DNA from: Anaerolineaceae bacterium UBA6105
GTDB lineage: Bacteria; Chloroflexota; Anaerolineae; Anaerolineales; Anaerolineaceae
Length of the DNA: 64,000 nt
NCBI GenBank assembly: GCA_002423495.1
Contig: DIWN01000058.1
Location: 4,080 to 68,079, forward strand
Direction: 5' to 3'
In this document: positions 1,104-42,770 of the stretch, piece by piece
Position numbering within the stretch: position 1 is the first letter of the stretch
Layout: the number at the start of each line of letters is the position of its first letter
Notes under the pieces: generated by a model
Told to the model about the DNA's origin: nothing
Database searches by the model: none
The model's input: the letters and a program-made list of their open reading frames with translations, nothing else
Position numbers and translations under genes: made by a program

Positions 1104-1123
1104 TTTTCCTTGAAGGAGTGACA

Positions 1124-6463: not shown

Positions 6464-9228
6464 GACCTTACAATGCCCGCAAAAGTGACGAGGTGCTGGT
6501 TGTCAGGCGCGGAAAGTTCCTGACTTTGCTTCAGACCGCGCTGAGCAACCGCGAATTCCAGTTTGCCCGCCAGGCTTCTTTGATCTGGCTGGCGAGTTAC
6601 CCAGGTGATCTTCTGATCAACTTTATCTACGCTTCCGTGTTGGCAGAACTTGGCGACACCGAAATGGCGGGTAAAAACCTGGCCAAACTCTTGGCATATG
6701 ACCCCGAGTTCGTGGAAGCTGCCAGCCTGCTGGATCGTCTCACCGGGGAAAGCAATCGCGACACCCACGCCAACCTGTTGTATTTGCAGCGCGGCACCTC
6801 CAGCGCGAAATCTCCGACCGCCTGGCTCGATGGCTTAATCGCTGCCCGCAACGCGTGGGAGAGCGGTGATCTGACCGGCGCGGAAAAGGCCATTCTCGAG
6901 TCCCTGGCGCACAACCCCCGTTCACCTTTACCCGCGGCTTTCCACATGCAGATCATCCACAAAACCAACAATACCACCCTGCTCGAAACCCTCGCGGGCA
7001 TTTACAGCAGCCGCTGGCCGGATTGTGTCCAGATCAAGGTCCTCTCAGCCATTGCCGATATTCAGCAGGGCAACGACACTGCCGGCGTCGAAAAAATGCA
7101 CTGGTGTGCTGCGCATGACGTCAGCGGGCAGGTCATCAACCGCCTGCTGGGACCCAATCACACCTACAAGCCCCTCTGGCCAGAAGATCTCAAGGTCTAT
7201 CTCGATCTGCCCGTACCAGCTACTGTCGCAGCGGATTTGGGATGGAATGTGCTTTCAAACGCGGATTTTGTTGCCTCGGATAGCGCTGGTAAGGAAGCAA
7301 CCCCGCAAACAGCTGAAGAAATCATCAACGACGATCCCACCCTGGCGCTTCACTTGCCAGATTACCTGGTTGACGAATTGGCTGAGTCTGGGGATGTGGA
7401 TTATTCCGAAGTCCCAACCAGCTCCTTCTTCCTCCAGGACATTGCCACACCTCCTCTGCCGGACGGACACACAAATGAGGTTCCTGCCCTTCATTCCCCC
7501 GATTCGCGAAAGTCAGCACCCATTTCCGAGGAATCACAGGCTACTGTCCTCGCGATGACCGAAATTCAAACTGAGTTTGAAAAAGTGGCCCGAAAAATGA
7601 ACAAATCCGAGCTCATCAATACCGATGGGCGTTTTCCCAGTTACGTAATTCTGACTTCCCGCGGAAATCTTGAGAAAAAGTACGGCGCGAACACGGCTGA
7701 TGTCGTGATCGAATCGATGCGCAAATTGAGTCTTAACATCGTCGACCTGCCGGGCTGGAACAGTCTCGTTTACGTACCTGATGACGAAACCAGCGCCCGT
7801 GAACAGGCTCTGGACCCCATTCAAGCCAGTGATGCCTGGAAGATCAAACTTTCTCTCACGGATCTGGATGCCAAACTCGCCTCCCAAGGAGAGATGATTG
7901 GCGCGCTGCTGATCATTGGCGGCAATGACATCGTACCTTTCCACATGCTACCCAACCCAACCGATGATTCGGATGTGAATGTGCCTTCCGACAATCCCTA
8001 TGCCACTCTCGATGAAAATTACTTTATCCAGCAGTGGCCTGTTGGTCGCATCCCGGATGAAGCAGGCAGCGATGCCGGCTATCTGCTCGAGCAACTGCGT
8101 TTCCTGACCAAAGAGTACGAGCTGAAAGTCAAGTCAAAAAAGAGTATTTCAACCAATATTCTCGCAAATCTGCTCCGCAGCCTGGCAGCCCGTTTCCAGA
8201 GTTTTAACGTTCGGTTTCAGAAGCCCGACAACATCGGTTGCACAGCTGAAGTTTGGAAGCCGGCTTCATCTGAAATCTTCGCTGTTATTGACCATGCAGA
8301 CCGCCTGCTGAGTTCTCCGCCAACCAACAATAACAACCTCCTCAACGGGCAGATATCTGACCCCAAATTTGCCTACTTCAATCTGCACGGACTCAAGGAT
8401 TCCCCCGAGTGGTATGGTCAGCGCGACCTTGCCAGGCCTTCAACCGATCCGGAATATCCGGTCGCGATGGAGCCCACCAACTTTAATCCCCAGACTTCTT
8501 CCCCTGAAATTGTGCTGAGTGAGGCCTGTTACGGCGCCAACATCCTCGATAAAAAGGTTAACGAAGCCATTTCGCTCAACTTCCTTGCCAGCGGTACGCG
8601 GGCCTTTGTCGGCTCAACTTGCATCGCCTACGGCTCCGTGAGCAAAAGTCTGGTGGCCGCAGATTTACTCGCCTATCACTTCTGGACCCACGTCAAAGCC
8701 GAAGTTTCCGTTGGCTACGCCCTGATGCGCGCCAAACTTGCCCTGGCAAAGAAGATGACCGAAGATCAGGGCTACCTGGACGGCGAAGACCAGAAAACCA
8801 TTCTTTCCTTCGTGCTCTACGGCGACCCACTGGCTTCCAGCGTGAATATTAAGGAAGTCACAAAACCAGCCATCCGCCCAACCACCACCCCGGAGCTCAA
8901 GACCATCAGCGACTCACGCGAAGAATTGATCGTGGCCGCTAATGAAATGCCGGATGAGATCCTGGAAAAGGTAAGGAAGGTCATCAGCAGTTACCTGCCG
9001 GGTTTGGATGACGCCACTGTCTCGCTCAACCCGCAACTGACCAACTTCAAGCTTGATCCAGCCATGGTCCAGGCACACCGCCAGAAGTTTGATTATGTCA
9101 GCCAAAGCCAGCGCTATGTGGTGACGCTTAAAAAGAGCTACGAATACCGCCAGCACAACCACAACCACTTCGCTCGCGTGACCTTTAACCAAAAAGGCGA
9201 CATGTTGAAATTGAGTATGTCGCGCTAA
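6460..9228 (+). CDS. TPR-like N-terminal region fused to a clan CD cysteine-peptidase-like domain (peptidase C25/gingipain-like)
   Basis: ATGA overlap with the TPR gene. LLIIGGNDIVPF...SDNPYATLDEN...WPVGRIP, then YFNLHGL (His codon 8386-8388) and LSEACYGAN (Cys codon 8527-8529), resemble C25 family signatures recalled from memory. Confidence 0.6.
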   Translation: MRPYNARKSDEVLVVRRGKFLTLLQTALSNREFQFARQASLIWLASYPGDLLINFIYASVLAELGDTEMAGKNLAKLLAYDPEFVEAASLLDRLTGESNRDTHANLLYLQRGTSSAKSPTAWLDGLIAARNAWESGDLTGAEKAILESLAHNPRSPLPAAFHMQIIHKTNNTTLLETLAGIYSSRWPDCVQIKVLSAIADIQQGNDTAGVEKMHWCAAHDVSGQVINRLLGPNHTYKPLWPEDLKVYLDLPVPATVAADLGWNVLSNADFVASDSAGKEATPQTAEEIINDDPTLALHLPDYLVDELAESGDVDYSEVPTSSFFLQDIATPPLPDGHTNEVPALHSPDSRKSAPISEESQATVLAMTEIQTEFEKVARKMNKSELINTDGRFPSYVILTSRGNLEKKYGANTADVVIESMRKLSLNIVDLPGWNSLVYVPDDETSAREQALDPIQASDAWKIKLSLTDLDAKLASQGEMIGALLIIGGNDIVPFHMLPNPTDDSDVNVPSDNPYATLDENYFIQQWPVGRIPDEAGSDAGYLLEQLRFLTKEYELKVKSKKSISTNILANLLRSLAARFQSFNVRFQKPDNIGCTAEVWKPASSEIFAVIDHADRLLSSPPTNNNNLLNGQISDPKFAYFNLHGLKDSPEWYGQRDLARPSTDPEYPVAMEPTNFNPQTSSPEIVLSEACYGANILDKKVNEAISLNFLASGTRAFVGSTCIAYGSVSKSLVAADLLAYHFWTHVKAEVSVGYALMRAKLALAKKMTEDQGYLDGEDQKTILSFVLYGDPLASSVNIKEVTKPAIRPTTTPELKTISDSREELIVAANEMPDEILEKVRKVISSYLPGLDDATVSLNPQLTNFKLDPAMVQAHRQKFDYVSQSQRYVVTLKKSYEYRQHNHNHFARVTFNQKGDMLKLSMSR

Positions 9229-9251
9229 ACCATTTCTTAGAGAATTCTGTT

Positions 9252-9284
9252 CGGCGGAATGCGCTTTTTATGCGCATTCCGCCG
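9252..9284 (+). terminator. 13-bp stem hairpin after the TPR/C25-like operon
   Basis: CGGCGGAATGCGC-TTTTTAT-GCGCATTCCGCCG. There is no clear 3' U-tract. Confidence 0.5.
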
Positions 9285-9407
9285 TTAAGGTTGAGCTTGT
9301 CGGAATTGTCTGCTTCCACGATAAACGACTTCAAAAACTGAGCATTCCGCTTTTCAATTATCTATTTCTCCCTGCAAGTTTACTCGCCAACTAAAATGGA
9401 TTAAATT

Positions 9408-9436
9408 CTGACACAATCAGCAGTTTAAGTTATACT
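9408..9436 (+). promoter_or_regulatory. sigma-70-like promoter candidate upstream of aor
   Basis: CTGACA-N17-TATACT, about 90 nt before ATG 9527. Confidence 0.3.
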
Positions 9437-9526
9437 TATCGCCGTGAACTACCTAAACCACATCTAATTAAACATGTCAAAGATGTTCATCAATTTCTTC
9501 CGACTTGACCACATACAGGAGTAAGC

Positions 9527-11413
9527 ATGCACGGATATAGTGGAAAAATCCTTCATATTGACCTGAAAACGAAGAAAAATTGGGTCGAAACCAAACCAGA
9601 GGAATGGTACAAAATTTACATCGGTGGGGTCTCAATGGCTTCACGGCTCTTATGGGAAAATATCACTCCCGGCTGCGATCCACTCGACGACGGCAACCCC
9701 ATTTGCATTGCAAATGGCATCTTCACCGGCACACCGGTGCCTGTTGGCGGCAAATTTGGTCTGGCTTCCAAATCGCCCCTCACCGGCTTCATCGGCGATA
9801 GTCTTTCCGGCAGCTGGTTCTCTATCGCATTGAAACGCGCTGGCTGGGACGGGCTGGTGTTGCACAACAGTTGCGACAGCTGGACTCAGCTTTTTATTGA
9901 TGACGAGCGCGTGCAGTTCAACGATGCCACTTACCTGCTCGGCAAAGGCACCTACGAAACCGAAGAAGCCATTCGCGCAAAACTCGGCGATGAACAGATC
10001 CGTTCCTGCACCATCGGTCCTTGCGGCGAAAATCTGGTGCGTTTTGCCAACGTCACCAATGATGGCCGCCAGGCTGGTCGTACCGGTCATGGCATGATTT
10101 GGGGGCATAAAAAACTCAAGGCAGTTTCTGTGCGTGGTACTCGCGGCGTAACCGTCTACGATCCCAAAACGCTCAATCAACTTTCTTTTGATATTTCCAA
10201 GAGTGCGCAAGGCAAAGACACTGAAAAATACCGCATTTACGGTACCTCCACCGGTTTACTATCCACTAACAAAATGGGCGTCTTACCTACCCGCAATTTC
10301 CAGGAAGGCGTTTTTGAGGATGCCGAACTAGTCAGCGGTGAATACTTGGATAAGCATCACAAAGTCAAGGTGATTGCTTGTGCCCAGTGCCCCATTGCCT
10401 GTGAGCAAATGTCGTTGGTCAAGACCGGACCCTTTGCTGGCGCGATGACAGGTATTGAATACGAATGTCTCTTTGCCAACAGTTCCAACCTGGGCATCTC
10501 GGATATCCGATCCTCCATCAAGCTCATCACCCTTGCGGACCACGATGGGATGGATGCCATCACCATGGGCGGCACAATCGGATGGGCGATGGAATGCTAC
10601 GAGCGAGGCGTGCTGAAGAAGGAAGACTTTGCCAGCAAAGCTCACCCCGAAGGGCTCGAATTAAACTTCGGCAATGGCGAAGCCGCTGTTGCCCTGGCTG
10701 AAATGATCCGTGATCAGGAAGGGATCGGAAAAATTCTTGCCCAGGGAACCCGCATCGCCAGCAGAACTATTGACGAGGAACGCGGGACAGAGACATTCAA
10801 ATGGGCTATGAACACTAAAGGTCTTGAAGCCGCTGGTTACGACGCACGCGCGCTCAAGACGTTTGCCGTCGGGCTTGCCACTGGCACCCGCGGCGGCTGC
10901 CACAATCGCTCTGCTGCATACGATCCGGACATGAAAGGCGAAACCAACCGTCTGACTGTTGATGAAACCCGCGGTCGGGTTGCAGCAGACTCAGAAGAAT
11001 ATGCTGCCGTTTACGACACTCTGCCCCTGTGCAAGTTCATCCGGCGCTGTTTCACCGGTAAAGCCGACCGGGCTGGTGCATGGCCTGCCATCGCCAAACT
11101 GATCAATGCCACTACTGGCTGGGACTTTGATTACGATGCCGTTGATTTGATCGGTGTGCGCGCTTGCACTATCAAAAAAGCTTTCAACATTCGCGAAGGC
11201 TGGACTGAGAAAGATGATGACTTGCCCTGGCGATGGAAGCACGACCCCTTCACTAAAGGTCCCAGTGCAGGCGTATTTGTGACCGATGAAGAACTTGAAT
11301 ATATGAAAGACCTTTATTACAAGGCCAAAGGCTGGACCGAGGAAGGTATGATCCCCAAAGAACTATTGATCAAACTCGGCATGTCCGACGTGGCTGAAGA
11401 AATCGGAGTCTAA
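9527..11413 (+). CDS. aor: tungsten-type aldehyde:ferredoxin oxidoreductase family protein
   Basis: Full-length AOR-family similarity (KSPLTGF, CAQCPIAC cluster motif, GIEYE, TRGGCH); SD AGGAG upstream. Confidence 0.9.
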   Translation: MHGYSGKILHIDLKTKKNWVETKPEEWYKIYIGGVSMASRLLWENITPGCDPLDDGNPICIANGIFTGTPVPVGGKFGLASKSPLTGFIGDSLSGSWFSIALKRAGWDGLVLHNSCDSWTQLFIDDERVQFNDATYLLGKGTYETEEAIRAKLGDEQIRSCTIGPCGENLVRFANVTNDGRQAGRTGHGMIWGHKKLKAVSVRGTRGVTVYDPKTLNQLSFDISKSAQGKDTEKYRIYGTSTGLLSTNKMGVLPTRNFQEGVFEDAELVSGEYLDKHHKVKVIACAQCPIACEQMSLVKTGPFAGAMTGIEYECLFANSSNLGISDIRSSIKLITLADHDGMDAITMGGTIGWAMECYERGVLKKEDFASKAHPEGLELNFGNGEAAVALAEMIRDQEGIGKILAQGTRIASRTIDEERGTETFKWAMNTKGLEAAGYDARALKTFAVGLATGTRGGCHNRSAAYDPDMKGETNRLTVDETRGRVAADSEEYAAVYDTLPLCKFIRRCFTGKADRAGAWPAIAKLINATTGWDFDYDAVDLIGVRACTIKKAFNIREGWTEKDDDLPWRWKHDPFTKGPSAGVFVTDEELEYMKDLYYKAKGWTEEGMIPKELLIKLGMSDVAEEIGV

Positions 11414-11423
11414 CGAGGAGCTT

Positions 11424-11936
11424 ATGGCAACCAGTACATCAAAATATGCATATATCGATTGCGATCCCAACCTTTGCGTGGGCTGTCAACTGTGTGAATA
11501 CATTTGTGCGTTCACAAAAACTGGAGAATACAACTCTTATCGCAGCCGCATCCGCACTGTTCGCGTTGATGAAGTCCTCATCACCGCCATCGCCTGCCGC
11601 ACCTGCGAAAACGCTCCCTGCGTGATTGTCTGCCCGCGCGATGCCCTGACCCAGGACCCTGTCACCGGCATCATCGACGTCAACGCCAGCAAGTGTGATG
11701 GCTGCGCCTGGTGCATCGAAGCCTGCGACTTCGGCGCCATCTCCATCAACCCGCAAACCACTCTGGCAGAGATCTGCGACCAGTGCAGGGACGAACCAGA
11801 TGGACCTCAGTGTGTAAAGTGGTGCCCCAAAGAAGCGCTCACCCTGACCACACCCGACCAGCGTGCCCAGAAGACTCGCCGCAATCTGATTACCGAATCT
11901 TTAAATATGCCCCAGAAAGCAACGGATCCTAAATGA
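11424..11936 (+). CDS. 4Fe-4S multi-cluster ferredoxin-type subunit (AOR partner; BamC/AorA-like size)
   Basis: Four Cys clusters: CVGCQLCEYIC, CRTCENAPCVIVCP, CDGCAWCIEAC, CDQC...CVKWCP. Confidence 0.8.
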   Translation: MATSTSKYAYIDCDPNLCVGCQLCEYICAFTKTGEYNSYRSRIRTVRVDEVLITAIACRTCENAPCVIVCPRDALTQDPVTGIIDVNASKCDGCAWCIEACDFGAISINPQTTLAEICDQCRDEPDGPQCVKWCPKEALTLTTPDQRAQKTRRNLITESLNMPQKATDPK

Positions 11937-14470
11937 GTGAAGACCCCATCACCAAGAGCCATGCCGCGGACTTCCCTGAGGATGAGCCGCGCATTGGTGT
12001 TTACGTCTGCCATTGCGGCAGTAACATTGCCGGCGTCATTCCCCCGGAAGAAGTCGTGGATTTTGCCGGCAAACTTCCTGGCGTCGTTCGTTCGATCGAT
12101 ACCATGTATGCCTGTGCCGACAGCGGTCAGCGTCTCATCAAAGAAGACATTGCCAAGTACGGCCTGAATCGCGTTGTTGTTGCAGCTTGTTCAGTGCGCA
12201 TGCACGAACCGACTTTCCGAGGTTGCGTGGCTGAAGCTGGTATAAACCCATTCCTGATGGAAATGGCGAACATCCGCGAGCAGTGCACCTGGGCGCATGG
12301 ACACGACCGTGCAGGCGCGCTTGAAAAAGCCAAAGACCTCACCGCAGCGGCAGTTGCAAAAGCCACATTCCTGACCCCGCTGGATATGATCAAAGTGCCC
12401 GTCACCAAACGCGCCTTGGTCATCGGCGGAGGTGTGGCTGGCATCACCGCAGCTCTCGACCTAGCTGAACAGAACATTCCGGTCACCTTAGTAGAAAAAG
12501 AACCAACGATTGGAGGGGTCATGGCGCAACTTAACAAGACCTTTCCAACGATGGACTGCAGTATATGAATTCTTGCACCAAAAATGGTTGACGCGGCGCG
12601 TCAGCCCCTGATCGAAGTAAAGACCTTTACCGAAGTTGAAAAAGTCGAAGGATATGTCGGCAATTTTGTTGTGACCCTTAGGGAAAAAGCCAAGTATGTG
12701 CGTGCTGACCGCTGCAATGGCTGCGGCGCCTGCACCAAGGCTTGCCCAATTGAAATCCCCAACTACTTTGAAATGGACCTTGCTCCGCGCAAGGCCGCGT
12801 ATATCCCCATGAGCCAGGCAGTGCCTCTCATTTACAACATCGACATGGACGCCTGTATCCATTGCTATAAATGTGTGGAAGCCTGCGGAGCCCTCGAAGC
12901 AATTGACTTCAGCATGGAAGACAAACTGGTGGAGCAGGAAATAGGCGCGATCGTGGTTGCCACCGGCTTCGGTCACTTTGACCCAACCCCCATGACCGAA
13001 TATGGTTATGGTCGCTTCCCTAATGTAATTACCGCTATGGAGATGGAAAGGTTGAATAACTCAGCCGGACCTACCAACGGCACCCTGATCCGCCCAAGTG
13101 ATGGAAAAGAACCGAAACGGATTGCTATCATCAATTGCGTCGGTTCACGAGACAAGCGCTTCAACCCAGGCTGCTCAAACTTCTGCTGCATGTACGCGAT
13201 AAAAAACGCGCTGTTGCTCAAGCAAATGCATCCCGATAATGAGATTTCAATCTACTACATCGACATCCGCACTCCCTCCAAGGGTTACGAAGAATTCTAT
13301 GACCGGGCACGCGAATCCGGCATCCACTTTATCCAGGGACGCCCTGCTGAAATCACGGAAAATCCCGATTCACACCAGCTCTTCATTGCCTCGGAAGATA
13401 TTGCGCTCGGAAAGGTAATTGAACGCGAGTATGACATGGTCATGCTCAATCAAGCCGCCATTCCCCAACCCGACCAGAACCACATGAGCTCCGTGCTGAA
13501 CGTGGCTCAGTCCCCCGGCGGTTGGTTCATGGAATATCACCCCAAATTGCGCCCAATGGACAGCCCCACCGACGGTATATTCTTCGCCGGCGCTAACCTG
13601 GGTCCCAAAGATATCCCGGCCAGCGTCGCCCAGGGTTCCGCAGCTGCCTCGCGCGCTTCGCGCATTCTGCACTCCGACAGCTGGCAGATCGAACCTACCG
13701 TAGCTGTGGTCTGGCCGGATCGCTGCGTCAGCGCCGATGGTCAAGCTTGTGGCATTTGTGCCCGCGCCTGCCCCTATGGTGCCATCGATTACACCAAGGG
13801 TCTCGCGGCGGAAGTGATCACGGCCAAGTGCCACGGTTGTGGCGCCTGTGTTGGCGAATGTCCGCATAACGCAATCACCCAACTCCACTACACCGACGCC
13901 CAGGTACTGGCACAAATCCGTACCCTGTTGGCAACTGAACCGGAGAAGAAAATTCTTGCTTTCCGCTGCCAGTGGTGCTCCTATGGCGGCGCAGACCTTG
14001 CCGGTACTTCGCATTTTGAATATAGCGCCAATGAACGTGGATTGCGCGTGATGTGTTCAGCGCGTATGGATGCTGACCTGATCTACGAGGCTTACCGCCT
14101 CGGTGCTGGTGGGATCCTCTATTCGGGATGTCATCCGCAGGACTGCCACTACATCACCGGTCAGATTGTCGGCGCTAAACGTGCAGCGCGGCTTGAAAAA
14201 ATGTTTGAGCGCATGCAAATGAGCCCGGGTCGCTTCCGCGTAGAGTGGATCAGCGCGGCTGAAGGCGATAAATATGCCCGTGTCATCAACGAAATGCAAG
14301 CCGCATTGGATGAAATTCCCGAGGATGTCCTCAAGGCCGAAATCGAACGCCTGCGCCCTGAAATGGCTAAGAAACTTGCCAAGCTGGATGATATTCCTGG
14401 TGTAGCTCAAGCAATGGTACAAGTCGACTTCATCGTCGAAGAAATGATTGGCAAGGAGAAAGTCGCATGA
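11933..14470 (+). CDS. hdrA: HdrA-like FAD/Fe-S flavoprotein with fused C-terminal MvhD-like domain; selenocysteine at in-frame TGA 12566-12568
   Basis: ORFs 11933..12568 and 12584..14470 are in the same frame. Read-through gives FPTMDCSI-U-ILAPKMV, the conserved HdrA motif. GGGVAGITAALDLA is the FAD fold. C-terminal AFRCQWCSYGGADLAG...YSGCHPQDCHY is MvhD-like. Confidence 0.8.
12586..12606 (+). promoter_or_regulatory. candidate bacterial SECIS stem-loop
   Basis: GGUUGACGC-GGC-GCGUCAGCC (one G-U pair), starting 17 nt after the UGA. Confidence 0.5.
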
Positions 14471-15060
14471 GTGGTTTTGCTGACCCCTACGCCCTTTCCG
14501 AACGCGTAAAAGCTATTCCTGGAGGGGACATGCTGATGATGTGCTATTCGTGTGGCACCTGCACCAGCAAATGCATGATCCAGACCAAACTTGAGAGCAG
14601 TTACAACCCGCGGCGCCTGATCCGTGAAGCAGTTTTCAACATGGACGATGCCGCCTTTGCAGACAAAACCACCTGGCTTTGCACCGCCTGTGACCTCTGT
14701 TACCCCGCCTGCCCGCAAAAAATCCACATTTCCGGCGTTATCAACGCAGTCAAGGCGCTGGCAGTCGAAAGTGGAAAAAAGACGCCCTACCAGGTTGCCA
14801 AAGTGGATGAATCCACCTGTGTCGCCTGCGGTTTGTGCGAAAAGATCTGCCCCTACGAAGCGATCAGCCTGGTTGAAAAGCGGGTTCCCTTCCGCGGTAA
14901 CATCACGGTTGCCTCTGTAGACTCGGGTAAATGCATGGCTTGCGGGTTGTGCACTGCTGCCTGTCGTTCGACTTCCATTCGCCTGACTGAGGAATACAAT
15001 GATGTCGAATTGATCAATTCGCTCTGGTCCTGGTTAGAAACAGAAAGGGTATCCTCATGA
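14467..15060 (+). CDS. HdrC-like 2x[4Fe-4S] domain fused to a second 2x[4Fe-4S] ferredoxin domain
   Basis: CYSCGTCTSKC...CTACDLCYPACP, then CVACGLCEKICP...CMACGLCTAACR. ATGA overlap with hdrA. Confidence 0.7.
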   Translation: MSGFADPYALSERVKAIPGGDMLMMCYSCGTCTSKCMIQTKLESSYNPRRLIREAVFNMDDAAFADKTTWLCTACDLCYPACPQKIHISGVINAVKALAVESGKKTPYQVAKVDESTCVACGLCEKICPYEAISLVEKRVPFRGNITVASVDSGKCMACGLCTAACRSTSIRLTEEYNDVELINSLWSWLETERVSS

Positions 15061-15497
15061 GCGAGACCCCTAAATTAGTTCTTTTTCAATGCCAATGGTG
15101 CCTTTTTTCGCCAGATGACCAGCAATGGGTCGACCATCAACTGCCTGAAAACATCCATCTTATAAAAGTTCCCTGCACCGGCCGCATCAATCCGCTTTAT
15201 ATTCTGAATGCAGTTCAGGGTGGCGCGGATGGCGTCATGGTCAGCGGTTGTCTGCCCGAACAGTGCCATTTCAAAACTGGCAACATTGGAGCCCGCCGGC
15301 AGTTGGAAGAGTTTTCCGATTATCTTGATCACATCGGCTATGAACAGAACAGGATACGTTTCCTCTGGCTGGATCTACAGGACAGGGGAATCATCCAGAA
15401 GGAACTGGCTGCCTTTGAGGCGCAAATAAAAGCGCTCGGACCTGCCCACAACCTTGCCACGCGCGTCACCGAACCAGCTGGAGGTGCCAATGCATGA
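15057..15497 (+). CDS. MvhD/FlxD-like protein
   Basis: FQCQWC...VPCTGRINPLYILNAVQGGADGVMVSGCLPEQCHF. ATGA overlap upstream. Confidence 0.8.
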   Translation: MSETPKLVLFQCQWCLFSPDDQQWVDHQLPENIHLIKVPCTGRINPLYILNAVQGGADGVMVSGCLPEQCHFKTGNIGARRQLEEFSDYLDHIGYEQNRIRFLWLDLQDRGIIQKELAAFEAQIKALGPAHNLATRVTEPAGGANA

Positions 15498-16443
15498 TTT
15501 AGACGCCCTCAAAGCTGAAGCCAAACGTCTTCTTGAGGAAGGTGTGGTGGAAATGATCATTGGCTTCAAAGCCGGCGATACTCCCCTCCACCCGCAGCCA
15601 GCGTTCTTCAAAACACCTGAAGAAGTGGATCAGCTTGTATACAACGCGCTTTGCCAGAACAATCTTGCCACCTACCTCACCCGCTTTCCAAAGACCCTGA
15701 AAATCGGCATGTTAGTGCGGGGCTGTGAGAACCGTTCTGTAAATGCCCTCGTTTTCGAAGGGCAGCATCCCAGGGAGGCTCTCTATCTGATCGGTGTTCC
15801 TTGCGAAGGCATCATCGACTGGCGAAAGATTGTCGCGCAAGCCGGTGAAGAGGTGATCAGCGTCACTGAACAGAGCGATAACACCATTTTGGTCGAATCG
15901 AAGTCAGGCTTCTTTACCCTCGAGAAAAACACCCTGCTACACGAAAGCTGCGCACGCTGCATTCATCCGAACCCTGTTTCTGCTGATATCGTCATCGGCG
16001 AACTTCTGCCCGAAGGCGATCCCGCCCTGGCGCGCGAGCAGGTTGCCGCTTTTGCGGAGCTCTCCCTGCCGGAAAGGTATGCCTGGTTTCGCCAGGAAGC
16101 AGAGCGCTGCATCCGTTGTTACGCCTGCCGTGAAGCCTGCCCGATGTGTTATTGCGAAGAGTGTTTTGTGGATCACATCTCCCCGCGTTGGACCGAAAGC
16201 GGCACAACCCCTGCTGGCATGCAAGGCTGGCATATTGTGCGCGCCTTCCATCAAACCGGACGCTGCACCAGTTGCGGCGCTTGCGAACGCGCTTGCCCGA
16301 TGGACATCAAGATGACTTATCTGACTGAGAAACTCAATGAAGATATGCGACAAAAGTACAACTTCGAAGTCGGGATGGACACCACCACTCCACCGCCATT
16401 CTCGACCATCACCCTGGACGATAAGTCCCGCTTTGTGGTTTGA
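15490..16443 (+). CDS. Fe-S subunit, FlxB/FlxC-like
   Basis: CIRCYACREACPMCYC and CTSCGACERACP motifs. Start moved to ATG 15490 (GGAGG upstream, 8-nt overlap) instead of track start 15454. Confidence 0.6.
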   Translation: MHDLDALKAEAKRLLEEGVVEMIIGFKAGDTPLHPQPAFFKTPEEVDQLVYNALCQNNLATYLTRFPKTLKIGMLVRGCENRSVNALVFEGQHPREALYLIGVPCEGIIDWRKIVAQAGEEVISVTEQSDNTILVESKSGFFTLEKNTLLHESCARCIHPNPVSADIVIGELLPEGDPALAREQVAAFAELSLPERYAWFRQEAERCIRCYACREACPMCYCEECFVDHISPRWTESGTTPAGMQGWHIVRAFHQTGRCTSCGACERACPMDIKMTYLTEKLNEDMRQKYNFEVGMDTTTPPPFSTITLDDKSRFVV

Positions 16444-16454
16444 GGAGAGCCAAC

Positions 16455-17474
16455 ATGAACCTTATCCTCAAAAAAGACCAACTCAATCACCTGCTTAATT
16501 CCTGGCGCCAGGATTATGAAGTTTACGCCCCGCAAGCTCTGCAAAATTACACCCATTTTCTGCCGCTGCAGGATGGTTTTGAACTTGCCTTCGATAAAGC
16601 CCACAACACGCGCATTCCGCCAAAAGCCCTCTTTTTACCGACATCGGAGGCACTGCTAAAATTTACAAAATTTGGCGGATACGAACAAGTCCCACTTGAA
16701 ACTGCTCCTCGTATCATCTTTGGCATCCGTCCCTGTGACGCGCATGCTATGACCATGCTCGACACCGTCTTTGAGCAGGAACGCTACACAGACCCTCACT
16801 GGAAAGCCCGCCGCGATGCCACGCTTTTGGTCGGCCTTGGCTGCCACGAACCCTGCCAGACTGGTTTCTGCACCACAGTCGGCTCAGGTCCCTTCAACCA
16901 CGCCGGTCTGGACGCGATCCTGACCGACCTCGGTGAGATTTTCCTGGTTGAAACGCTGACTGAGAAAGGTGAACAACTTTTCACCCAACTTGAAACTGCC
17001 ACTGAGGAGCAAAGCAAACAAGCAAGCGAGGTGCAGCAAGCTGCCGCAGCAAGCATGCCAATTGCCTTTGAAACGGAAGGGTTGAAAGAAAAACTCGATC
17101 AAAACTTCGACAGTCCCTATTGGGAAGAAATTTCGCGCTCCTGTCTTGGCTGCGGGGTGTGCACGTTCCTCTGCCCCACCTGCTTCTGCTTCGACATCGT
17201 CGACGAAGCCCAACGCGGCGAACGCGTGCGCAACTGGGACACCTGCATGTTCCGCACTTACTCGCTCGAAGCGTCCGGGCACAATCCGCGCCCCAGTCGT
17301 GTGGAGCGGACACGGCAGCGCCTGAGTCACAAATACACCCATTGGGTGGATCAAATCAACCAGATCGGCTGCACCGGTTGCGGTCGCTGCGTGCGATACT
17401 GCCCGGTCGGTCTGGATATTCGCGCTATGCTGCGCAAAGCAAGTCAACTTCCAAGTGAGGTAGCCCATGTCTAA
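16455..17474 (+). CDS. Fe-S subunit, sulfhydrogenase-beta/AsrA/FlxB-like
   Basis: CLGCGVCTFLCPTCFCFD and CTGCGRCVRYCPVGLDI. GAGGAG lies before ATG 16455. Confidence 0.65.
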   Translation: MNLILKKDQLNHLLNSWRQDYEVYAPQALQNYTHFLPLQDGFELAFDKAHNTRIPPKALFLPTSEALLKFTKFGGYEQVPLETAPRIIFGIRPCDAHAMTMLDTVFEQERYTDPHWKARRDATLLVGLGCHEPCQTGFCTTVGSGPFNHAGLDAILTDLGEIFLVETLTEKGEQLFTQLETATEEQSKQASEVQQAAAASMPIAFETEGLKEKLDQNFDSPYWEEISRSCLGCGVCTFLCPTCFCFDIVDEAQRGERVRNWDTCMFRTYSLEASGHNPRPSRVERTRQRLSHKYTHWVDQINQIGCTGCGRCVRYCPVGLDIRAMLRKASQLPSEVAHV

Positions 17475-18324
17475 TGAGGCTCACAGTCCTTATCTGCCTA
17501 TTCCCATGCATGTTTTGCATGCCTATTACGAGTCTAATGACCGCTCCCTCAAAACCCTGGAGCTGAGTTTTGACGACCCCCAGGATGCCCGCGAATTCTT
17601 CGCTGCCTACAACCCGGGTCAATTCTGCCTGTTGAGCGTTATTGGCAAGGGAGAATCCGCTCTCGGAATTGCCAGTGCTGCCTGGGAAGGGGACTTCGTG
17701 CGCTTTACCATCCAAAAGATGGGTTCTGTCACAACTGCACTGCATGAACTCAAACCCGGCGATCCGATAGGTATTCGTGGACCGCTTGGCAACGGTTTCC
17801 CGCTGGAAGACTGGAAGGGCAAGAACCTGGTCATCATTGGCGGCGGTTGTGCTTTCTCAACCCTATACGCCCTCACAAAACATCTGCACCATCCCTCCAA
17901 TCGCGGGGATTACGGCAAAATGACTGTCATTTACGGAACACGCACCTCTGGTCTGTGCATGTACAAGCAGGATATTGCCGCCTGGCATCAGCGGGATGAC
18001 ATGGAAGTGCATCAAGCCATTGACGTCCCGGAGCAGGATTGGCTTCACCATGTTGGCTATGTGCCTGATGTGGTCAAAGAGGTCAAACCATCTCCAGTCA
18101 ATAGCGTGGCAGTCGTTTGTGGTCCTCCCATCATGACCAAATACACCCTGCCAGCACTCGTCGAGCTTGGTTTCACCCCCGAAACCATTTTCACCTCGCT
18201 CGAAAAACGCATGAAATGCGGCGTCGGCAAGTGTGGTCGCTGCAATCTTGGTCCAAAATACATCTGCAAAGACGGTCCGGTCTTCAGCCTCGCTGAACTC
18301 AACGACCTGCCGGCAGACCTTTAG
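17467..18324 (+). CDS. FAD/NAD(P)H-binding [2Fe-2S] oxidoreductase, PyrK/AsrB/sulfhydrogenase-gamma/FlxA-like
   Basis: FAD-binding-like VRFTIQ, GGGCAFS nucleotide fold, C-terminal CGVGKCGRCNLGPKYICKDGPVF. Confidence 0.8.
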   Translation: MSNEAHSPYLPIPMHVLHAYYESNDRSLKTLELSFDDPQDAREFFAAYNPGQFCLLSVIGKGESALGIASAAWEGDFVRFTIQKMGSVTTALHELKPGDPIGIRGPLGNGFPLEDWKGKNLVIIGGGCAFSTLYALTKHLHHPSNRGDYGKMTVIYGTRTSGLCMYKQDIAAWHQRDDMEVHQAIDVPEQDWLHHVGYVPDVVKEVKPSPVNSVAVVCGPPIMTKYTLPALVELGFTPETIFTSLEKRMKCGVGKCGRCNLGPKYICKDGPVFSLAELNDLPADL

Positions 18325-18331
18325 GAGAAAA

Positions 18332-19315
18332 ATGAGTCGCGGTATTCCAAAGAAAACCAAAACCGAACACGAAATGACCATCGCGCGCCCAATGGTGACG
18401 CGTAATTACCTGATGCGGTGGGATCTCGACCGCTGTGTTGGCTGCCAAATTGGTCCGATTGTCTGTCCCAAAGAGGCTCTCACGCATGTTGAAGCGGAAC
18501 TGCAGGACGGACGCATCGTCAAACGCGCCTCGGTGGACGTAGACGAGACGAAATGCGTCAATTGCGGCATTTGCGTGGTATCCTGCCCCACCCATGCCAT
18601 TTCACTTACGGTCAATGGCAAACCTGAAATTCCGGTCATCGAGTACGGCGCTTACCCCGAATTCATTACCAAGACTATTTTTCGCAAGGAAAAGTTCGAT
18701 TTTTCGCTTAAAGAATTCCTGATCGACAACTGCCCCACCGGCGTCATCAGCTACGATGAAGTACGCGACACCATGCGGGTTGATTTTGATAACTGCATCC
18801 ACTGTCGCCAGTGTGAAGTTGCCAGTAAGGGTGCATTCGAGGTCCGGCAGGCCTGGGTCGGCTCAGTTGAGCTGCACCGTGAACGCTGCGTGGAAGGCTG
18901 CCTGGCCTGCGCCGATATCTGCCCCACCCGTGCCCTCCATATCGACGATTCCGGCGAGCTGGTTTTAGCGGATTATTACTGCATCAAATGCGGCGCCTGC
19001 ATGGAAGTTTGCCCCATAAAAGCCGAATATGCGGAAGAGCCCTTTGAGTTCGAATCGCAGGGCATGACCCTTCAACGGACATTAAAACGCCTGACGAACG
19101 AGAACGAACTGCCTATCAAAGTGGAACGCTGGCGGGTGAACCACACCGAAGTTTCGAGCGCATCCTGGATCGAGGCACTGCGCAAGGTATCGGATGATAA
19201 AGCCAAGTCCGTTGAGATTGACCGTAAGCGCGCATTGCGCCGGGCTGATCTGATTGACGCGCTGCGTGGTAATTTAACTGCAAAAACGCAACTCAAAAAA
19301 GAAATAGAAAAATAG
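18332..19315 (+). CDS. polyferredoxin-like multi-[4Fe-4S] protein with Cys-free basic C-terminal tail
   Basis: CVGCQIGPIVCP, CVNCGICVVSCP, CIHCRQCEV, CLACADICP, CIKCGACMEVCP. AGGAGA lies before ATG 18332 (track start 18233 overlaps the previous gene). Confidence 0.7.
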   Translation: MSRGIPKKTKTEHEMTIARPMVTRNYLMRWDLDRCVGCQIGPIVCPKEALTHVEAELQDGRIVKRASVDVDETKCVNCGICVVSCPTHAISLTVNGKPEIPVIEYGAYPEFITKTIFRKEKFDFSLKEFLIDNCPTGVISYDEVRDTMRVDFDNCIHCRQCEVASKGAFEVRQAWVGSVELHRERCVEGCLACADICPTRALHIDDSGELVLADYYCIKCGACMEVCPIKAEYAEEPFEFESQGMTLQRTLKRLTNENELPIKVERWRVNHTEVSSASWIEALRKVSDDKAKSVEIDRKRALRRADLIDALRGNLTAKTQLKKEIEK

Positions 19316-19340: not shown

Positions 19341-19640
19341 ATGAAAATACCTCAGTTATTGATGTTAATACCCTTTCTCAAAAAGCTAATGGTTGAAACA
19401 TCAGCAGAAGCCTTCCATAAAGCTTGCAAAATCCTGGATCAAAATGGAATTCAGTACCGCATCCAGACGATCCGCCTGCGCGGAATCATTGGCACAGGAT
19501 TGGAATCCAGCAGCTATATGCGCTTCAATGTCAGCCAAAACAAATGGGGTTCACAATCAGCAACTTCTTATGCGATTTACGTTCGTCCCAAAGATTACGA
19601 AAGAGCCCGCCAGTTGACAGGCTCAATCAAAATGGAATAA
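19341..19640 (+). CDS. small hypothetical protein
   Basis: ORF with a GAGAGGA SD-like sequence. No family recognised. The 3' end overlaps the convergent gene by 18 nt. Confidence 0.35.
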   Translation: MKIPQLLMLIPFLKKLMVETSAEAFHKACKILDQNGIQYRIQTIRLRGIIGTGLESSSYMRFNVSQNKWGSQSATSYAIYVRPKDYERARQLTGSIKME

Positions 19641-23034: not shown

Positions 23035-24075
23035 TTAGCTCAACACCTTCCTGAATGCTTCCAGGCTGGCTTCCACAGCCCTGTCAGAAATATCGTTATG
23101 GGTCACCATCCGATACTCCCCGGGGCCAGAATCCATCAACAAAATGCCTTCCTGCTTCATCGCTCCGAGGAATTCACCTACGGAAAGTGGAACACTCTCG
23201 TCCAAGGTGAAAAAGATCATATTAGTTTGGGGTGAATTCTTGGTCAGGTGGACTTTATTATTAGTCCTCAGCCCCTCCGCCAACATAGCCGCGCGTCGAT
23301 GGTCCTCCGCGAGCCTGTCCACCATCTCATCCAGCGCTACAATTCCAGCCGCCGCGATGATACCTGCCTGGCGCATGCCGCCGCCGAGCATTTTCCGCAA
23401 GCGCCGTGCTTTGCTGATAAACGCCGCATCGCCGCACAGAACCGACCCCACCGGGGCGCATAAGCCTTTGCTCAGGCAGAAGGTAATCGAATCAACGGGC
23501 GCCACCAATTTACTGGCGGGCAGTCCCAAAGCCACCACGGCATTAAAAATTCTCGCTCCGTCCAGGTGTAAAAGCAAATTATGTTCACTCGCGAAGGCAG
23601 CTACTTGTTCGGTATATTCCAGGCTGATCGGTACTCCGCCACAAAAATTTTGGGTGTTTTCGATAATCACCAGTTTTGAAACAGGTTCGTGTATGTCATC
23701 CGTATTACGCAATGCGTTCTGTAAATCCTGCAAAGCAAGCGTTCCATCCGCTTGGTTTGGAACCGTATGAATAACAACGCCGCCCACCGCCGAGACACCA
23801 CCAGCTTCATGCAAAAAGGTGTGCCCTTGCGTGCCCATGATCGCCTCTTCACCCCGCGCGCAGTGCGCCAAAACCGCCACCAGGTTGCCCATCGTGCCCG
23901 AGGTCACAAACAAGCCCTGCTCCTTGCCGAGCATATCCGCGGCTTTCTGTTCGAGCGCATTGACGGTTGGATCTTCTCCGTAAACGTCATCCCCCACCTG
24001 TGCGCTTGCCATTGCCTGCCGCATTTTCTCGGTTGGATGGGTGGTAGTGTCAGAGCGAAAATCAAAATATTGCAT
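23035..24075 (-). CDS. ltaE: low-specificity L-threonine aldolase
   Basis: FRSDTTTHPT...GDDVYGEDPTVNALE and SKGL PLP-Lys context typical of the family. Confidence 0.85.
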   Translation of the reverse strand: MQYFDFRSDTTTHPTEKMRQAMASAQVGDDVYGEDPTVNALEQKAADMLGKEQGLFVTSGTMGNLVAVLAHCARGEEAIMGTQGHTFLHEAGGVSAVGGVVIHTVPNQADGTLALQDLQNALRNTDDIHEPVSKLVIIENTQNFCGGVPISLEYTEQVAAFASEHNLLLHLDGARIFNAVVALGLPASKLVAPVDSITFCLSKGLCAPVGSVLCGDAAFISKARRLRKMLGGGMRQAGIIAAAGIVALDEMVDRLAEDHRRAAMLAEGLRTNNKVHLTKNSPQTNMIFFTLDESVPLSVGEFLGAMKQEGILLMDSGPGEYRMVTHNDISDRAVEASLEAFRKVLS

Positions 24076-33187: not shown

Positions 33188-33679
33188 ATGGAAGAGAACC
33201 CAACCCTAACCAAGCCCACAACTGATGACCTCAAGCAGGAAATTTCATTAATCCTGCAAGGAATAAACAAGGACCGGGAGAATCTGATCCCAATTCTCCA
33301 CAAAATTACCCTACGATTTGGTTACATCTCCAGCCAGGCATTATACGAAGTTAGCGAACAAACAGCCATTCCACTTTCTGAAGTGTTCTCTGTCGCCACC
33401 TTCTACCGCATGCTCCCCACCGAGGAGCGCGGCAGGCATGTGATTCTCTTCTGCGAGAGCCTGCCTTGCCACGTTGTTGGAGGGCGGGAAGTATTGCAAG
33501 CCCTAAAGGCAGAACTCCAGCTTGAACCAGGCCAAACCAACCCGGATAAGAAGTGGACACTTCTGACCACCAGCTGCCTGGGTGTGTGCAATTTTGGTCC
33601 GGTCATCTCAATCGATGGCAACATCCACGGGAATCTAACACCGGAATCCCTTCCAGAAATCCTGAAAAAATACGAGTAG
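33188..33679 (+). CDS. NuoE/HoxE/HydC-like [2Fe-2S] subunit, copy 1
   Basis: CESLPCHV...TSCLGVCNFGPV thioredoxin-like 2Fe-2S motif. Confidence 0.85.
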   Translation: MEENPTLTKPTTDDLKQEISLILQGINKDRENLIPILHKITLRFGYISSQALYEVSEQTAIPLSEVFSVATFYRMLPTEERGRHVILFCESLPCHVVGGREVLQALKAELQLEPGQTNPDKKWTLLTTSCLGVCNFGPVISIDGNIHGNLTPESLPEILKKYE

Positions 33680-33687
33680 GAGCCGCA

Positions 33688-35304: not shown

Positions 35305-35392
35305 AATTGAAAAGCTCTGATTAGAAAGACTCTGCGGGTTGGTCTGCAAGAGGCAAACTGACCTGCTTCATTTTATAAAGTAACTTAGAAGG

Positions 35393-35421
35393 TTGACCAA
35401 ACTACTTGAATTGAGTACACT
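35393..35421 (+). promoter_or_regulatory. sigma-70-like promoter candidate for the hydrogenase operon
   Basis: TTGACC-N17-TACACT. Confidence 0.45.
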
Positions 35422-35423
35422 AC

Positions 35424-35441
35424 GTGTAATATTTTTCACAA
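35424..35441 (+). promoter_or_regulatory. Rex-like operator candidate immediately after the -10
   Basis: GTGTAATatttTTCACAA against TTGTGAAnnnnTTCACAA (11 of 14; the right half is perfect). Confidence 0.4.
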
Positions 35442-35479
35442 AGGTAACAAGCCTTTGAGATATAGGAGCATGTAACAAA

Positions 35480-35992
35480 ATGACATCAACACCCATGCAG
35501 CTGGATCCCCTCGAGAATCCCAAAATGAGAGAAGTTATCGATAATACCATCTCAGAATTCGGAGATCAAAATGGCGCTTTGATGGTAGTTCTCAACCACC
35601 TCCAGGAGAGAGTGGGCTTTATCACCAAACCAATGCAAGCTTACGTTGCCGAAAAACTGGGTGTTCCAGTGAGCAAGGTCCATGGTGTGGTATCTTTTTA
35701 TTCTTTCTTCACCACAGAACCCCGCGGTAAACATGTTGTAAAATTCTGCATAGGTACTGCCTGCTACGTTGGCGGAGCTTCCCAATTGATTGATAAAGCC
35801 AAGCAAGTGCTGGCCATCGAACCCGGTCAAACTACTCCAGACGGGCTGATCACCCTCGAAGTCTGCCGTTGTGTGGGAGCTTGCAGCCAGGCACCTGTTG
35901 TGGTGGTGGACGAAGCCAATCATGGGCGAGTGAAGCCTTCTCAATTCGGTAAGGTTTTGACGGATATCCAAAAAAGCGAGGCGGCAGTTTGA
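35480..35992 (+). CDS. NuoE/HoxE/HydC-like [2Fe-2S] subunit, copy 2
   Basis: FCIGTACYV...EVCRCVGACSQAPV motif. Confidence 0.85.
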   Translation: MTSTPMQLDPLENPKMREVIDNTISEFGDQNGALMVVLNHLQERVGFITKPMQAYVAEKLGVPVSKVHGVVSFYSFFTTEPRGKHVVKFCIGTACYVGGASQLIDKAKQVLAIEPGQTTPDGLITLEVCRCVGACSQAPVVVVDEANHGRVKPSQFGKVLTDIQKSEAAV

Positions 35993-36922: not shown

Positions 36923-36958
36923 GTTTGGGCTTAATCAATTAGGAAGGTAAGTATAGAT

Positions 36959-38743: not shown

Positions 38744-38763
38744 GAGAAGCGAGGAGAATATTT

Positions 38764-40692: not shown

Positions 40693-40729
40693 CCGATTAA
40701 ACGAATAAATGCAGGTTGAAAGGAAACGT

Positions 40730-41272: not shown

Positions 41273-41281
41273 GAGAATTGA

Positions 41282-42706: not shown

Positions 42707-42726
42707 ATCGAACCAAACCAAGTTAT

Positions 42727-42758: not shown

Positions 42759-42770
42759 GCAGAAGGGTAT

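Follow-up and report, generated by a model that had tools for sequence, protein, structure and literature searches.

A nine-gene operon from Anaerolineaceae pairs a predicted tungsten aldehyde oxidoreductase with a selenocysteine-type HdrA and an exchangeable downstream cassette

A 64,000-nt stretch of DNA from a member of the Anaerolineaceae (Chloroflexota), referred to here in its entirety as the window, contains at positions 9527–19315 nine co-directional and closely packed genes, each an open reading frame (ORF). In order, the predicted products are a tungsten-dependent catalytic subunit of the AOR family (WorL), its polyferredoxin partner WorS, a selenocysteine (Sec)-containing HdrA fused to MvhD, a truncated HdrC fused to a ferredoxin domain (HdrC'-Fd), a free MvhD, three Flx-like proteins and a second polyferredoxin. 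The reading we favour, held with about as much confidence as doubt, is that the nine products form one soluble multi-subunit tungsten enzyme that would oxidize aldehydes and split the electrons at the HdrA flavin between ferredoxin and NAD(P)+. Domain assignments for all nine products were made and are backed by Pfam, NCBIfam and PDB searches. These searches upheld the gene content proposed in an earlier note on this DNA (AOR, a 170-aa multi-[4Fe-4S] protein, Sec-containing HdrA fused to MvhD, an HdrC-like/ferredoxin fusion, a free MvhD, two FlxB/C-like proteins, a FlxA-like protein and a polyferredoxin), with a correction for gene 6 described below.

The full length of the AOR is covered by the Pfam domains AFOR_N and AFOR_C (4.7e-65 and 1.9e-108, respectively). 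In PDB searches it scores 347 bits with P. furiosus AOR (1aor), 313 with WorL of AmWOR1, 305 with A. aromaticum AorB and 288 with C. autoethanogenum AOR, whereas BamB (4z3w) reaches only 165 bits over residues 4–416, the N-terminal two thirds of the protein. The signature of aldehyde-oxidising tungsten oxidoreductases (WORs) consists of Thr243, Glu313, Tyr427 and His448 in PfAOR numbering (PMC13328260). Alignment to 1aor places these residues at T240, E313, Y438 and H459 of the window AOR and shows that the [4Fe-4S] ligands C285, C288, C292 and C502 are kept; the pterin-binding motifs DxxGxD and DxxxxC span D338–D343 and D497–C502. Signature residues, cluster cysteines and pterin motifs are invariant across 14 relatives. 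By these residues, the window AOR is assigned to the aldehyde-oxidising type, and tungsten content and aldehyde oxidation are predicted. Membership of the BamB group, that is, of class II benzoyl-CoA reductase (BCRII), was rejected on the low PDB score and the retained aldehyde signature, in agreement with the earlier note, which sets the operon apart from BamBCDEFGHI; the AOR is not part of a BamB-I type reductase. The partner WorS has 16 Cys residues in four complete cluster motifs, and its best PDB match is WorS of AmWOR1 (9mqx_E, 1.5e-23), with AorA at 3.4e-19 and BamC at only 1.8e-9.

The HdrA-MvhD gene is a single frame whose sole interruption is the TGA at 12566–12568. Residues 17–665 of the product align colinearly to residues 2–649 of M. 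wolfeii HdrA (5odc_A) with 787 bits, and residues 669–805 match MvhD. The full HdrA domain set is present, comprising the N-terminal domain, the TrxR-like FAD domain, the inserted ferredoxin domain and the C-terminal ferredoxin domain, and the protein is about 60% identical to HdrA of proven bifurcating activity. The NCBIfam model HdrA2 gives 1018 bits, below its curated cut-off of 1100, so the window HdrA is a relative and not the methanogen equivalog. The FAD-adjacent CxxC(U) pair is kept, with DCSI-U aligning to DCSIC197 of M. wolfeii HdrA, as is the conserved Lys near flavin N5, where CCMYAIK aligns with CCMYAMK409 of M. wolfeii HdrA. The roles of this pair and of the Lys of CCMYAxK in HdrA have been described (BCRII preprint, PMC13580544). 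With these features gene 3 is a genuine HdrA, for which bifurcation activity is predicted.

The site FPTMDCSI-x-I of HdrA is encoded with TGA in 65 loci, the window included, and with TGC or TGT in all eight loci of type C (operon types are defined below). Downstream of the window TGA lies a hairpin of sequence GGUUGACGC-GGC-GCGUCAGCC that resembles a selenocysteine insertion sequence (SECIS) element. The hairpin is predicted in 55 of 55 distinct Sec-type sequences, being weakened in about seven of them by one or two stem substitutions; stem changes are only occasional among these sequences, even at wobble positions, and the Cys-type hdrA genes are without the hairpin. This combination of TGA and hairpin is what one expects of a bacterial Sec codon and its SECIS element, and the Sec codon predicted by the earlier note is borne out by the alignment of the TGA with the Cys codons of relatives and by the conserved hairpin behind it. 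Genes for Sec insertion are not visible within the window.

Gene 4 matches only positions 2–81 of the 144-position NCBIfam model of HdrC, and stands in place of HdrC and HdrB. Domain searches revealed no CCG-domain protein (HdrB) in the operon, as the earlier note had it, nor in the rest of the window. Because relatives carry HdrBC or an Mvh hydrogenase instead of the Flx genes, the port on the HdrC side appears exchangeable, and the absence of HdrB is to be read anew in this light. Gene 6 is colinear with FdhB of the Fdh-MvhD-Hdr complexes 9t1s, 7bkb and 8rvu and is probably an adaptor that docks to MvhD; it is 30% identical to its counterpart in the canonical flx-hdr cluster of a metagenome contig (L088). 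The earlier note had described two AsrA/sulfhydrogenase-beta-like proteins, which stands for gene 7 but not for gene 6, since the latter follows FdhB/FrhB and has only the C-terminal Fe-S domain in common with gene 7. The PDB matches of genes 7 and 8 (9nez_B and 9nez_C) are the beta and gamma subunits of P. furiosus sulfhydrogenase I, and the pair is predicted to be an Fe-S/FAD/NAD(P)H diaphorase. The Flx assignment is based on domains and on comparison with the flxDCBA products of L088, to which the window proteins are 30–41% identical. Gene 9 is taken from the ATG at 18332, the mechanical ORF beginning at 18233, and its closest NCBIfam likeness is to FwdF and VhuB.

The genes are joined by ATGA overlaps at 11933, 14467 and 15057 and by 8-nt overlaps at 15490 and 17467, with intergenic gaps of 10, 11 and 7 nt before 11424, 16455 and 18332, respectively. 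The 298-nt gap upstream of the AOR gene holds a perfect hairpin, which likely terminates the upstream gene and delimits the unit on its 5' side, and a promoter-like site that fits the sigma-70 consensus better than any other in the region. Within the cluster, resemblances to promoters or terminators do not exceed the expectation from shuffled sequence, and a division of the operon by internal promoters or terminators was rejected on this ground. The ORF coordinates thus confirm the nine-gene operon of the earlier note with its overlaps and gaps, and no excess of internal signals parts the AOR from the Hdr/Flx genes. A Moco/Wco (molybdenum or tungsten cofactor) riboswitch was considered for the leader and elsewhere and discarded, as an Rfam scan of the window gave no known RNA besides tRNA-His and one chance match to the hairpin at 9253–9283.

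Table 1. Features of the operon and its borders, in window coordinates.
Feature	Position	Strand	Basis
Perfect 12-bp hairpin	9253..9283	+	Read from sequence; directly 3' of the stop codon of the upstream gene
Sigma-70-like promoter match, CTGACA-17-TATACT	9408..9436	+	Consensus match only, 10/12 positions; 90 nt before the AOR start codon
Gene 1, WorL/AOR: predicted W-bis-pyranopterin and [4Fe-4S] catalytic subunit, aldehyde-oxidising type	9527..11413	+	Pfam, PDB, residue alignment
Gene 2, WorS: 4x[4Fe-4S] polyferredoxin partner of AOR, 170 aa	11424..11936	+	Cys motifs, PDB
Gene 3, HdrA (FAD, 6x[4Fe-4S], CxxU motif) fused to MvhD ([2Fe-2S])	11933..14470	+	PDB 5odc, NCBIfam
In-frame UGA, putatively read as selenocysteine	12566..12568	+	Aligns with Cys197 of M. 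wolfeii HdrA
SECIS-like hairpin, 9-bp stem, GGC loop	12586..12606	+	Begins 17 nt after the UGA
Gene 4, N-terminal half of HdrC (2x[4Fe-4S]) fused to 2x[4Fe-4S] ferredoxin domain	14467..15060	+	Pfam, NCBIfam, Cys motifs
Exchangeable cassette: Fd half of gene 4, MvhD, Flx-like genes	~14735..18330	+	blastn of four A/B sister pairs; approximate bounds
Gene 5, free MvhD/FlxD-like [2Fe-2S] adaptor	15057..15497	+	Pfam FlpD 2.2e-32
Gene 6, FdhB/FrhB-like Fe-S protein, FlxC-like	15490..16443	+	PDB, L088 comparison
Gene 7, sulfhydrogenase-beta/AsrA-like Fe-S subunit, FlxB-like	16455..17474	+	PDB 9nez_B 2.4e-45; NCBIfam ShyB, HydB, AsrA
Gene 8, sulfhydrogenase-gamma/AsrB/PyrK-like, FAD, [2Fe-2S], NAD(P)H site, FlxA-like	17467..18324	+	PDB 9nez_C 1.9e-54; Pfam NAD_binding_1, DHODB_Fe-S_bind
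Gene 9, polyferredoxin, ~4-5 clusters, FwdF/MvhB-like	18332..19315	+	Pfam, NCBIfam, Cys motifs

A genome scan found AOR relatives in 252 species representatives, of which the best 80 were retrieved. Close homologues of the window AOR (75–96% identity) all come from metagenome-assembled genomes of Anaerolineae, many from anaerobic digesters, and the hosts include Anaerolineaceae, Brevefilum, Pelolinea, Mesolinea and one member of the Thermoflexia. All loci were searched by tblastn with the nine window proteins and with proteins from two variant loci, and conservation was counted over the 54 loci that extend at least 8 kb downstream of the AOR, shorter contigs ending within the cluster. WorS, HdrA-MvhD and the polyferredoxin accompany the AOR in 54 of 54 loci, with no counter-example. 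The co-occurrence in other genomes that the earlier note had set as a test is thereby found, in the constant frame AOR-WorS-HdrA...polyferredoxin. The flanking genes vary between lineages while the order of the cluster recurs in dozens of species, implying that the conserved unit is the cluster itself and that the arrangement is not due to chance.

Three operon types are distinguished by what lies between HdrA-MvhD and the polyferredoxin, which is retained in all of them. Type A (37 loci, the window included) contains HdrC'-Fd, MvhD and the three Flx-like genes. In type B (11 loci), HdrC'-Fd is fused to MvhD in every case, and both subunits, small and large, of a [NiFe] hydrogenase of the Vhu/Mvh type come after it. 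Type C (six complete and two truncated loci) carries an HdrA-MvhD of the Cys type together with a full HdrC and an HdrB that has two CCG domains. The variant cassettes were annotated with Pfam and NCBIfam on two loci (L066 and L055). In the AOR tree, type C forms one clade and types A and B are interleaved. Four A/B sister pairs compared by blastn have syntenic flanks and DNA similarity that runs through AOR, WorS, HdrA and about 265 nt of gene 4, is lost beyond that point and returns exactly at the start of the polyferredoxin. Syntenic flanks together with breakpoints in gene 4 and at the polyferredoxin indicate that the Flx and Mvh cassettes have repeatedly replaced each other at this site. 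In relatives the position reads Fd-MvhD-MvhG-MvhA (type B) or HdrC-HdrB (type C). A search for further gene fusions, from which the placement of WorS or of the polyferredoxin could be deduced, found none.

A search with the gene-4 protein and the best 80 of the 252 genome-scan matches yielded only Anaerolineae-type sequences, and a spread beyond the Anaerolineae is not established. The AOR clade of the window stands well apart: among the other 50%-identity cluster representatives, even the nearest share no more than 44% identity with the window AOR. The representative library gave no member at least 50% identical to it, though hundreds at 75–96% exist in other collections, and the representative of the clade itself seems to be missing from, or unlisted in, this library. 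The nearest AOR clade outside the Anaerolineae belongs to the Dehalococcoidia (43–44% identical), with loci that have neither WorS nor Hdr genes. In two of these loci (L085 and L086, positions 4000–16800), the AOR is preceded by two moeA genes, a mobA-like gene and a 100-aa ORF and followed by NuoE/NuoF-like genes, to which L085 adds a formate-dehydrogenase-like (FdhA) molybdopterin subunit. A second clade, 45–46% identical to the window AOR, has WorS and, in one contig (L088, below), a convergent flx-hdr cluster; in the P0242 clade, which has WorS, a Hdr-Flx neighbour occurs in only one of the five loci with enough sequence.

The metagenome contig L088 (positions 1–21806) encodes a branched-chain amino-acid ABC transporter, an IorA/IorB-like 2-oxoacid:ferredoxin oxidoreductase, a PaaK-like ligase, an ACT protein, an AOR and WorS, together with a convergent canonical flxDCBA-hdrCBA cluster whose HdrA has 1113 aa and a GltD/Pyr_redox_2-like insertion. 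Its AOR is 46% identical to that of the window and stands in an indolepyruvate-oxidoreductase/aryl-CoA-ligase context. This canonical flx-hdr cluster confirms the Flx homology of genes 5–8 and hints at a looser association of AOR with Flx/Hdr genes elsewhere.

In solved HdrA complexes, electrons enter at the FAD through MvhD and the C-terminal ferredoxin domain; the low-potential output runs via the inserted ferredoxin domain, and the high-potential output via HdrC to HdrB (BCRII preprint; PMC13580544). Because the variation among the relatives starts inside HdrC, and because the MvhD of type B is fused to HdrC'-Fd, the most economical interpretation makes HdrB, the hydrogenase and the Flx module alternative termini of one high-potential branch. 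With the variable module on the HdrC branch, the constant parts, namely AOR-WorS with the HdrA-fused MvhD and the polyferredoxin, would occupy the other two connections. Electrons would then pass from tungsten through WorS and the HdrA-fused MvhD to the HdrA FAD. From the flavin, one electron would reach ferredoxin by way of the inserted ferredoxin domain and then the polyferredoxin; the other would reach NAD(P)+ by way of HdrC', its ferredoxin domain, the free MvhD and finally the Flx-like subunits. At the end of this HdrC branch, the FdhB-like protein and the sulfhydrogenase beta/gamma-like subunits would act as a Flx-like NAD(P)H:Fe-S oxidoreductase; in relatives the same port would be served by the Mvh [NiFe] hydrogenase (H+/H2) or by HdrB (disulfide). 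The overall reaction would be 2 RCHO + 2 H2O + 2 Fd(ox) + NAD(P)+ -> 2 RCOO- + 2 Fd(red) + NAD(P)H. Set against aldehyde and ferredoxin, each of NAD(P)+, disulfide and, when H2 pressure is low, H+ could plausibly accept electrons at high potential. We infer the single complex, the direction of flow, the substrate and the assignment of AOR and ferredoxin to their arms, and likewise bifurcation or confurcation itself.

Several considerations speak for electrons entering from AOR-WorS and leaving by the polyferredoxin. By type the AOR is an aldehyde oxidiser, and the overall reaction would equal that measured for WOR1 (WorLS-WorABC), which experimentally oxidises aldehydes while reducing ferredoxin and NAD+ together (PMC13328260, PMC12318220). 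Polyferredoxins of the MvhB type are known exits of HdrA (PMC13580544). With aldehyde at micromolar and acid at millimolar levels, the potential of the couple comes close to that of ferredoxin (PMC13328260), so that coupling to an easier acceptor would sustain the reduction of ferredoxin. The oxidative direction also suits the host: Anaerolineaceae are fermenters that release H2 (PMC5481317), and this one encodes a NuoEFG-linked [NiFe] hydrogenase that would use NADH and reduced ferredoxin.

The closest functional analogue is the same WOR1, a class IV WOR of Acetomicrobium mobile and Eubacterium limosum that the earlier note missed and that already links aldehyde, NAD and ferredoxin. Its AOR-type WorL and four-cluster WorS are the best or near-best PDB matches of the window pair, and a flavin-based bifurcation module joins its aldehyde oxidation to ferredoxin and NAD(P)+ (PMC13328260). 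That module, however, is of the BfuABC/HydABC type (NuoEFG-like, with FMN), whereas the window operon has HdrA (FAD, Sec), MvhD, HdrC', Flx-like proteins and a polyferredoxin. Membership of class IV was rejected, as none of the seven genes downstream of the AOR-WorS pair is NuoE/F/G-like and WorABC is lacking. The class III enzyme AorABC of Aromatoleum aromaticum likewise combines an AOR with a four-cluster polyferredoxin and passes electrons to nicotinamide via an FAD subunit (PMC13328260), but does so with that single small subunit, where the window operon encodes seven further proteins including HdrA.

Other known systems resemble the HdrA part. The class II benzoyl-CoA reductase BamBCDEFGHI also places an AOR-family tungsten subunit and a polyferredoxin on an HdrA-type core, with an MvhD-like adaptor and selenocysteine (BCRII preprint). 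It differs in having a BamB-type catalytic subunit, a three-cluster BamC in place of the four-cluster WorS, a fused double HdrA (BamE) where the window has a single canonical one, Sec in the MvhD-like BamF and not in HdrA, and the subunits BamD (HdrBC-like, CCG) and BamGHI (NuoEFG-like), neither of which is found in the window operon. FlxABCD-HdrABC, known from Desulfovibrio and other anaerobes, has in common with the window operon HdrA, the MvhD-like FlxD, a FlxA-type subunit for FAD and NAD(P)H, and a pair of Fe-S proteins. It contains HdrB and a full HdrC, whereas the window has no HdrB and a truncated HdrC fused to a ferredoxin domain, an HdrA with its own MvhD, and the AOR-WorS pair and polyferredoxin in addition; its Flx module sits at the donor site, whereas that of the window is probably on the HdrC branch. 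In the Mvh/Fdh-HdrABC-Fmd complexes of methanogens, HdrA (about 60% identical), MvhD, an FdhB-like adaptor and an MvhB/FwdF-like polyferredoxin that links HdrA to a W/Mo-pterin enzyme all recur, and the type-B relatives carry MvhG and MvhA as in methanogen Mvh-HdrABC. The pterin enzyme there is formylmethanofuran dehydrogenase, whereas here it is an AOR in a bacterial host, with no HdrB in types A and B; and the methanogen hydrogenase is a separate donor, whereas here the hydrogenase or Flx module is fused or adjacent to HdrC'.

Some points weigh against the oxidative bifurcating enzyme that we favour. Its support comes from gene content and comparison of loci. Judged by homology, Flx and MvhAG-MvhD serve as electron donors in the complexes known for them. 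The aldehyde E0' is about -580 mV, and with an aldehyde as donor there is no endergonic step at standard conditions, so bifurcation is not thermodynamically required. The same caveat has been voiced for WOR1 (PMC12096430). Finally, in both solved precedents, BCRII and Mvh/Fdh-Hdr-Fmd, the W/Mo-pterin enzyme with its polyferredoxin forms the low-potential output arm of the HdrA-type core (BCRII preprint; PMC13580544).

Since the pterin enzyme is the low-potential acceptor in both solved cases, a reductive enzyme is a serious, though tentative, alternative. Such an enzyme would resemble BCR and Fmd and would use bifurcation to drive the reduction of carboxylic acids to aldehydes at tungsten, below the ferredoxin potential. 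Reduced ferredoxin or another soluble donor would deliver electrons to the HdrA-fused MvhD or the polyferredoxin, and the HdrA FAD would bifurcate them; the low-potential electrons would reach tungsten via the polyferredoxin and/or WorS, and the high-potential ones would pass via HdrC' to NAD(P)+, or to H+ or disulfide in relatives. BamC-BamB, positioned on the inserted ferredoxin domain of the HdrA-like BamE, is the low-potential output in the benzoyl-CoA reductase (BCRII preprint), and MvhB/FmdF polyferredoxins bring low-potential electrons from HdrA to the W/Mo site of Fmd (PMC13580544), in line with the greatest similarity of the window polyferredoxin being to FwdF. The scheme also fits a variable module on the HdrC branch and is thermodynamically feasible by our own estimate. 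It would, however, spend four reduced ferredoxins per aldehyde in hosts able to dump reductant as H2, and a polyferredoxin as the input to MvhD is without precedent. Moreover, the AOR is of the ordinary aldehyde-oxidising type and not BamB-like, and the characterised multi-subunit relatives WOR1 and AorABC act oxidatively (PMC13328260).

An enzyme that does not bifurcate at all is unlikely in our judgement. It would be a linear aldehyde:NAD(P)+ oxidoreductase like the class III AorABC, in which HdrA serves as scaffold or wire, or else two enzymes that are merely co-transcribed. The needlessness of an uphill step with an aldehyde donor (PMC12096430 and our own thermodynamic reasoning) speaks for this reading, as does the fact that the physical complex is deduced from the genes. 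Yet HdrA keeps all its domains and the hallmarks of its flavin site, at an identity of about 60% to a proven bifurcating HdrA, as well as a costly Sec; the polyferredoxin is kept in all three types; the linkage holds in 54 of 54 loci and has outlasted cassette exchange; and simple NAD-linked AORs need only one small FAD subunit (PMC13328260).

Very unlikely, finally, is the canonical Flx logic, in which NAD(P)H (H2 in type B) is a mid-potential donor that enters via the free MvhD at the usual HdrA site and in which the low-potential electron goes to an acid at the AOR or to ferredoxin and the high-potential one via HdrC'-Fd to an acceptor whose gene lies elsewhere: Flx, FdhB-MvhD and MvhAG-MvhD act as donors in every complex characterised, and L088 has its flxDCBA-hdrCBA cluster adjoining an AOR-WorS pair, but types A and B encode no high-potential acceptor, type C has the acceptor HdrB without a donor module, the cassettes replace each other at one position and so have the same role by parsimony, and the HdrC'-Fd-MvhD fusion binds the module to the HdrC branch.

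A second redox cluster of the window, at 33188–43262 (+), comprises NuoE/HoxE-like genes, two NuoF-like genes, a NuoG/HoxU-like gene and a histidine-kinase-ATPase-like ORF. It also encodes a maturation protease and both subunits, small and large, of a [NiFe] hydrogenase that is Vhu/Mvh-like. In make-up the cluster resembles a [NiFe] hydrogenase of the Bfu/HydABC type, linked to NAD(H) and ferredoxin; the NuoEFG-like genes at 33.2–40.7 kb belong to this separate cluster, and its large subunit is 42% identical to that of the type-B operon hydrogenase. A low-specificity L-threonine aldolase, which yields acetaldehyde, is encoded at 23035–24075 (-) (NCBIfam PRK10534, 343 bits, cut-off 312); the gene lies 3.7 kb downstream of the operon on the opposite strand.

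At the borders of the operon, a 99-aa ORF without a Pfam match follows the polyferredoxin by 26 nt (19341–19640, +). Its product is 76–89% identical in the closest relatives and 33–44% in some others, and no type-B or type-C locus has the ORF, which many type-A loci lack too. It may be an accessory tenth gene. Directly upstream of the operon, at 1118–9228 (+), are genes for a 1781-aa TPR-rich protein and a 922-aa protein, the latter with no Pfam match in the window and a faint Peptidase_C25 match in a relative. The same pair is found in L001 and L002, where pntAB is inserted between it and the operon; a link to the pntAB transhydrogenase, upstream in L001, was dropped, as it occurs in only 3 of 62 loci.

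A 2026 classification of more than 4,000 WORs distinguishes five classes, with WorLS-WorABC and BamB-I as the only members of the bifurcating class IV, and its text and supplements contain no Hdr/Flx-linked AORs and no Anaerolineae/Chloroflexi (PMC13328260). A 2025 review of tungsten enzymes does not mention Hdr/Flx-linked AORs either (PMC12096430), and for the Brevefilum genome AOR genes and 'no definitive hydrogenase' were reported, with no remark on the linkage (PMC5481317). Full-text literature searches, with subscription-only work outside their scope, found the arrangement nowhere described. The statement of the earlier note that it knew of no enzyme with this subunit set therefore holds for the searchable literature, the supplements of the WOR classification included. 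The architecture combines two known kinds, the multi-subunit tungsten oxidoreductases and the modular HdrA complexes, and the exchangeable third port is its most notable trait.

So far, tungsten enzymes of the AOR family have been described with a bifurcation module attached in only two ways, by the Bfu-type 'plug' in WOR1 and by the double module in class II BCR, and the window operon would add a third, the canonical Sec-HdrA core. The relatives offer a natural experiment, as orthologous loci of close relatives would end the HdrB branch in an NAD(P)H module or a hydrogenase, and those of the sister clade in HdrBC; this cassette variation makes the modularity of HdrA complexes directly testable. 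The operon would give HdrA a function in bacteria that are neither methanogenic nor sulfate-reducing, and it bears on the balance of NAD(P)H, ferredoxin and H2 in Anaerolineaceae, which are dominant and poorly understood fermenters of anaerobic digesters. It may conceivably, though this is doubtful, be the first example of a class of HdrA-based tungsten oxidoreductases with a plug-in third port (NAD(P)H, H2 or disulfide), in which bifurcation drives electrons below the ferredoxin potential onto tungsten. If true, this would be a general ATP-independent carboxylic-acid reductase in highly abundant digester fermenters, applying the logic of class II BCR and Hdr-Fmd to ordinary acids.

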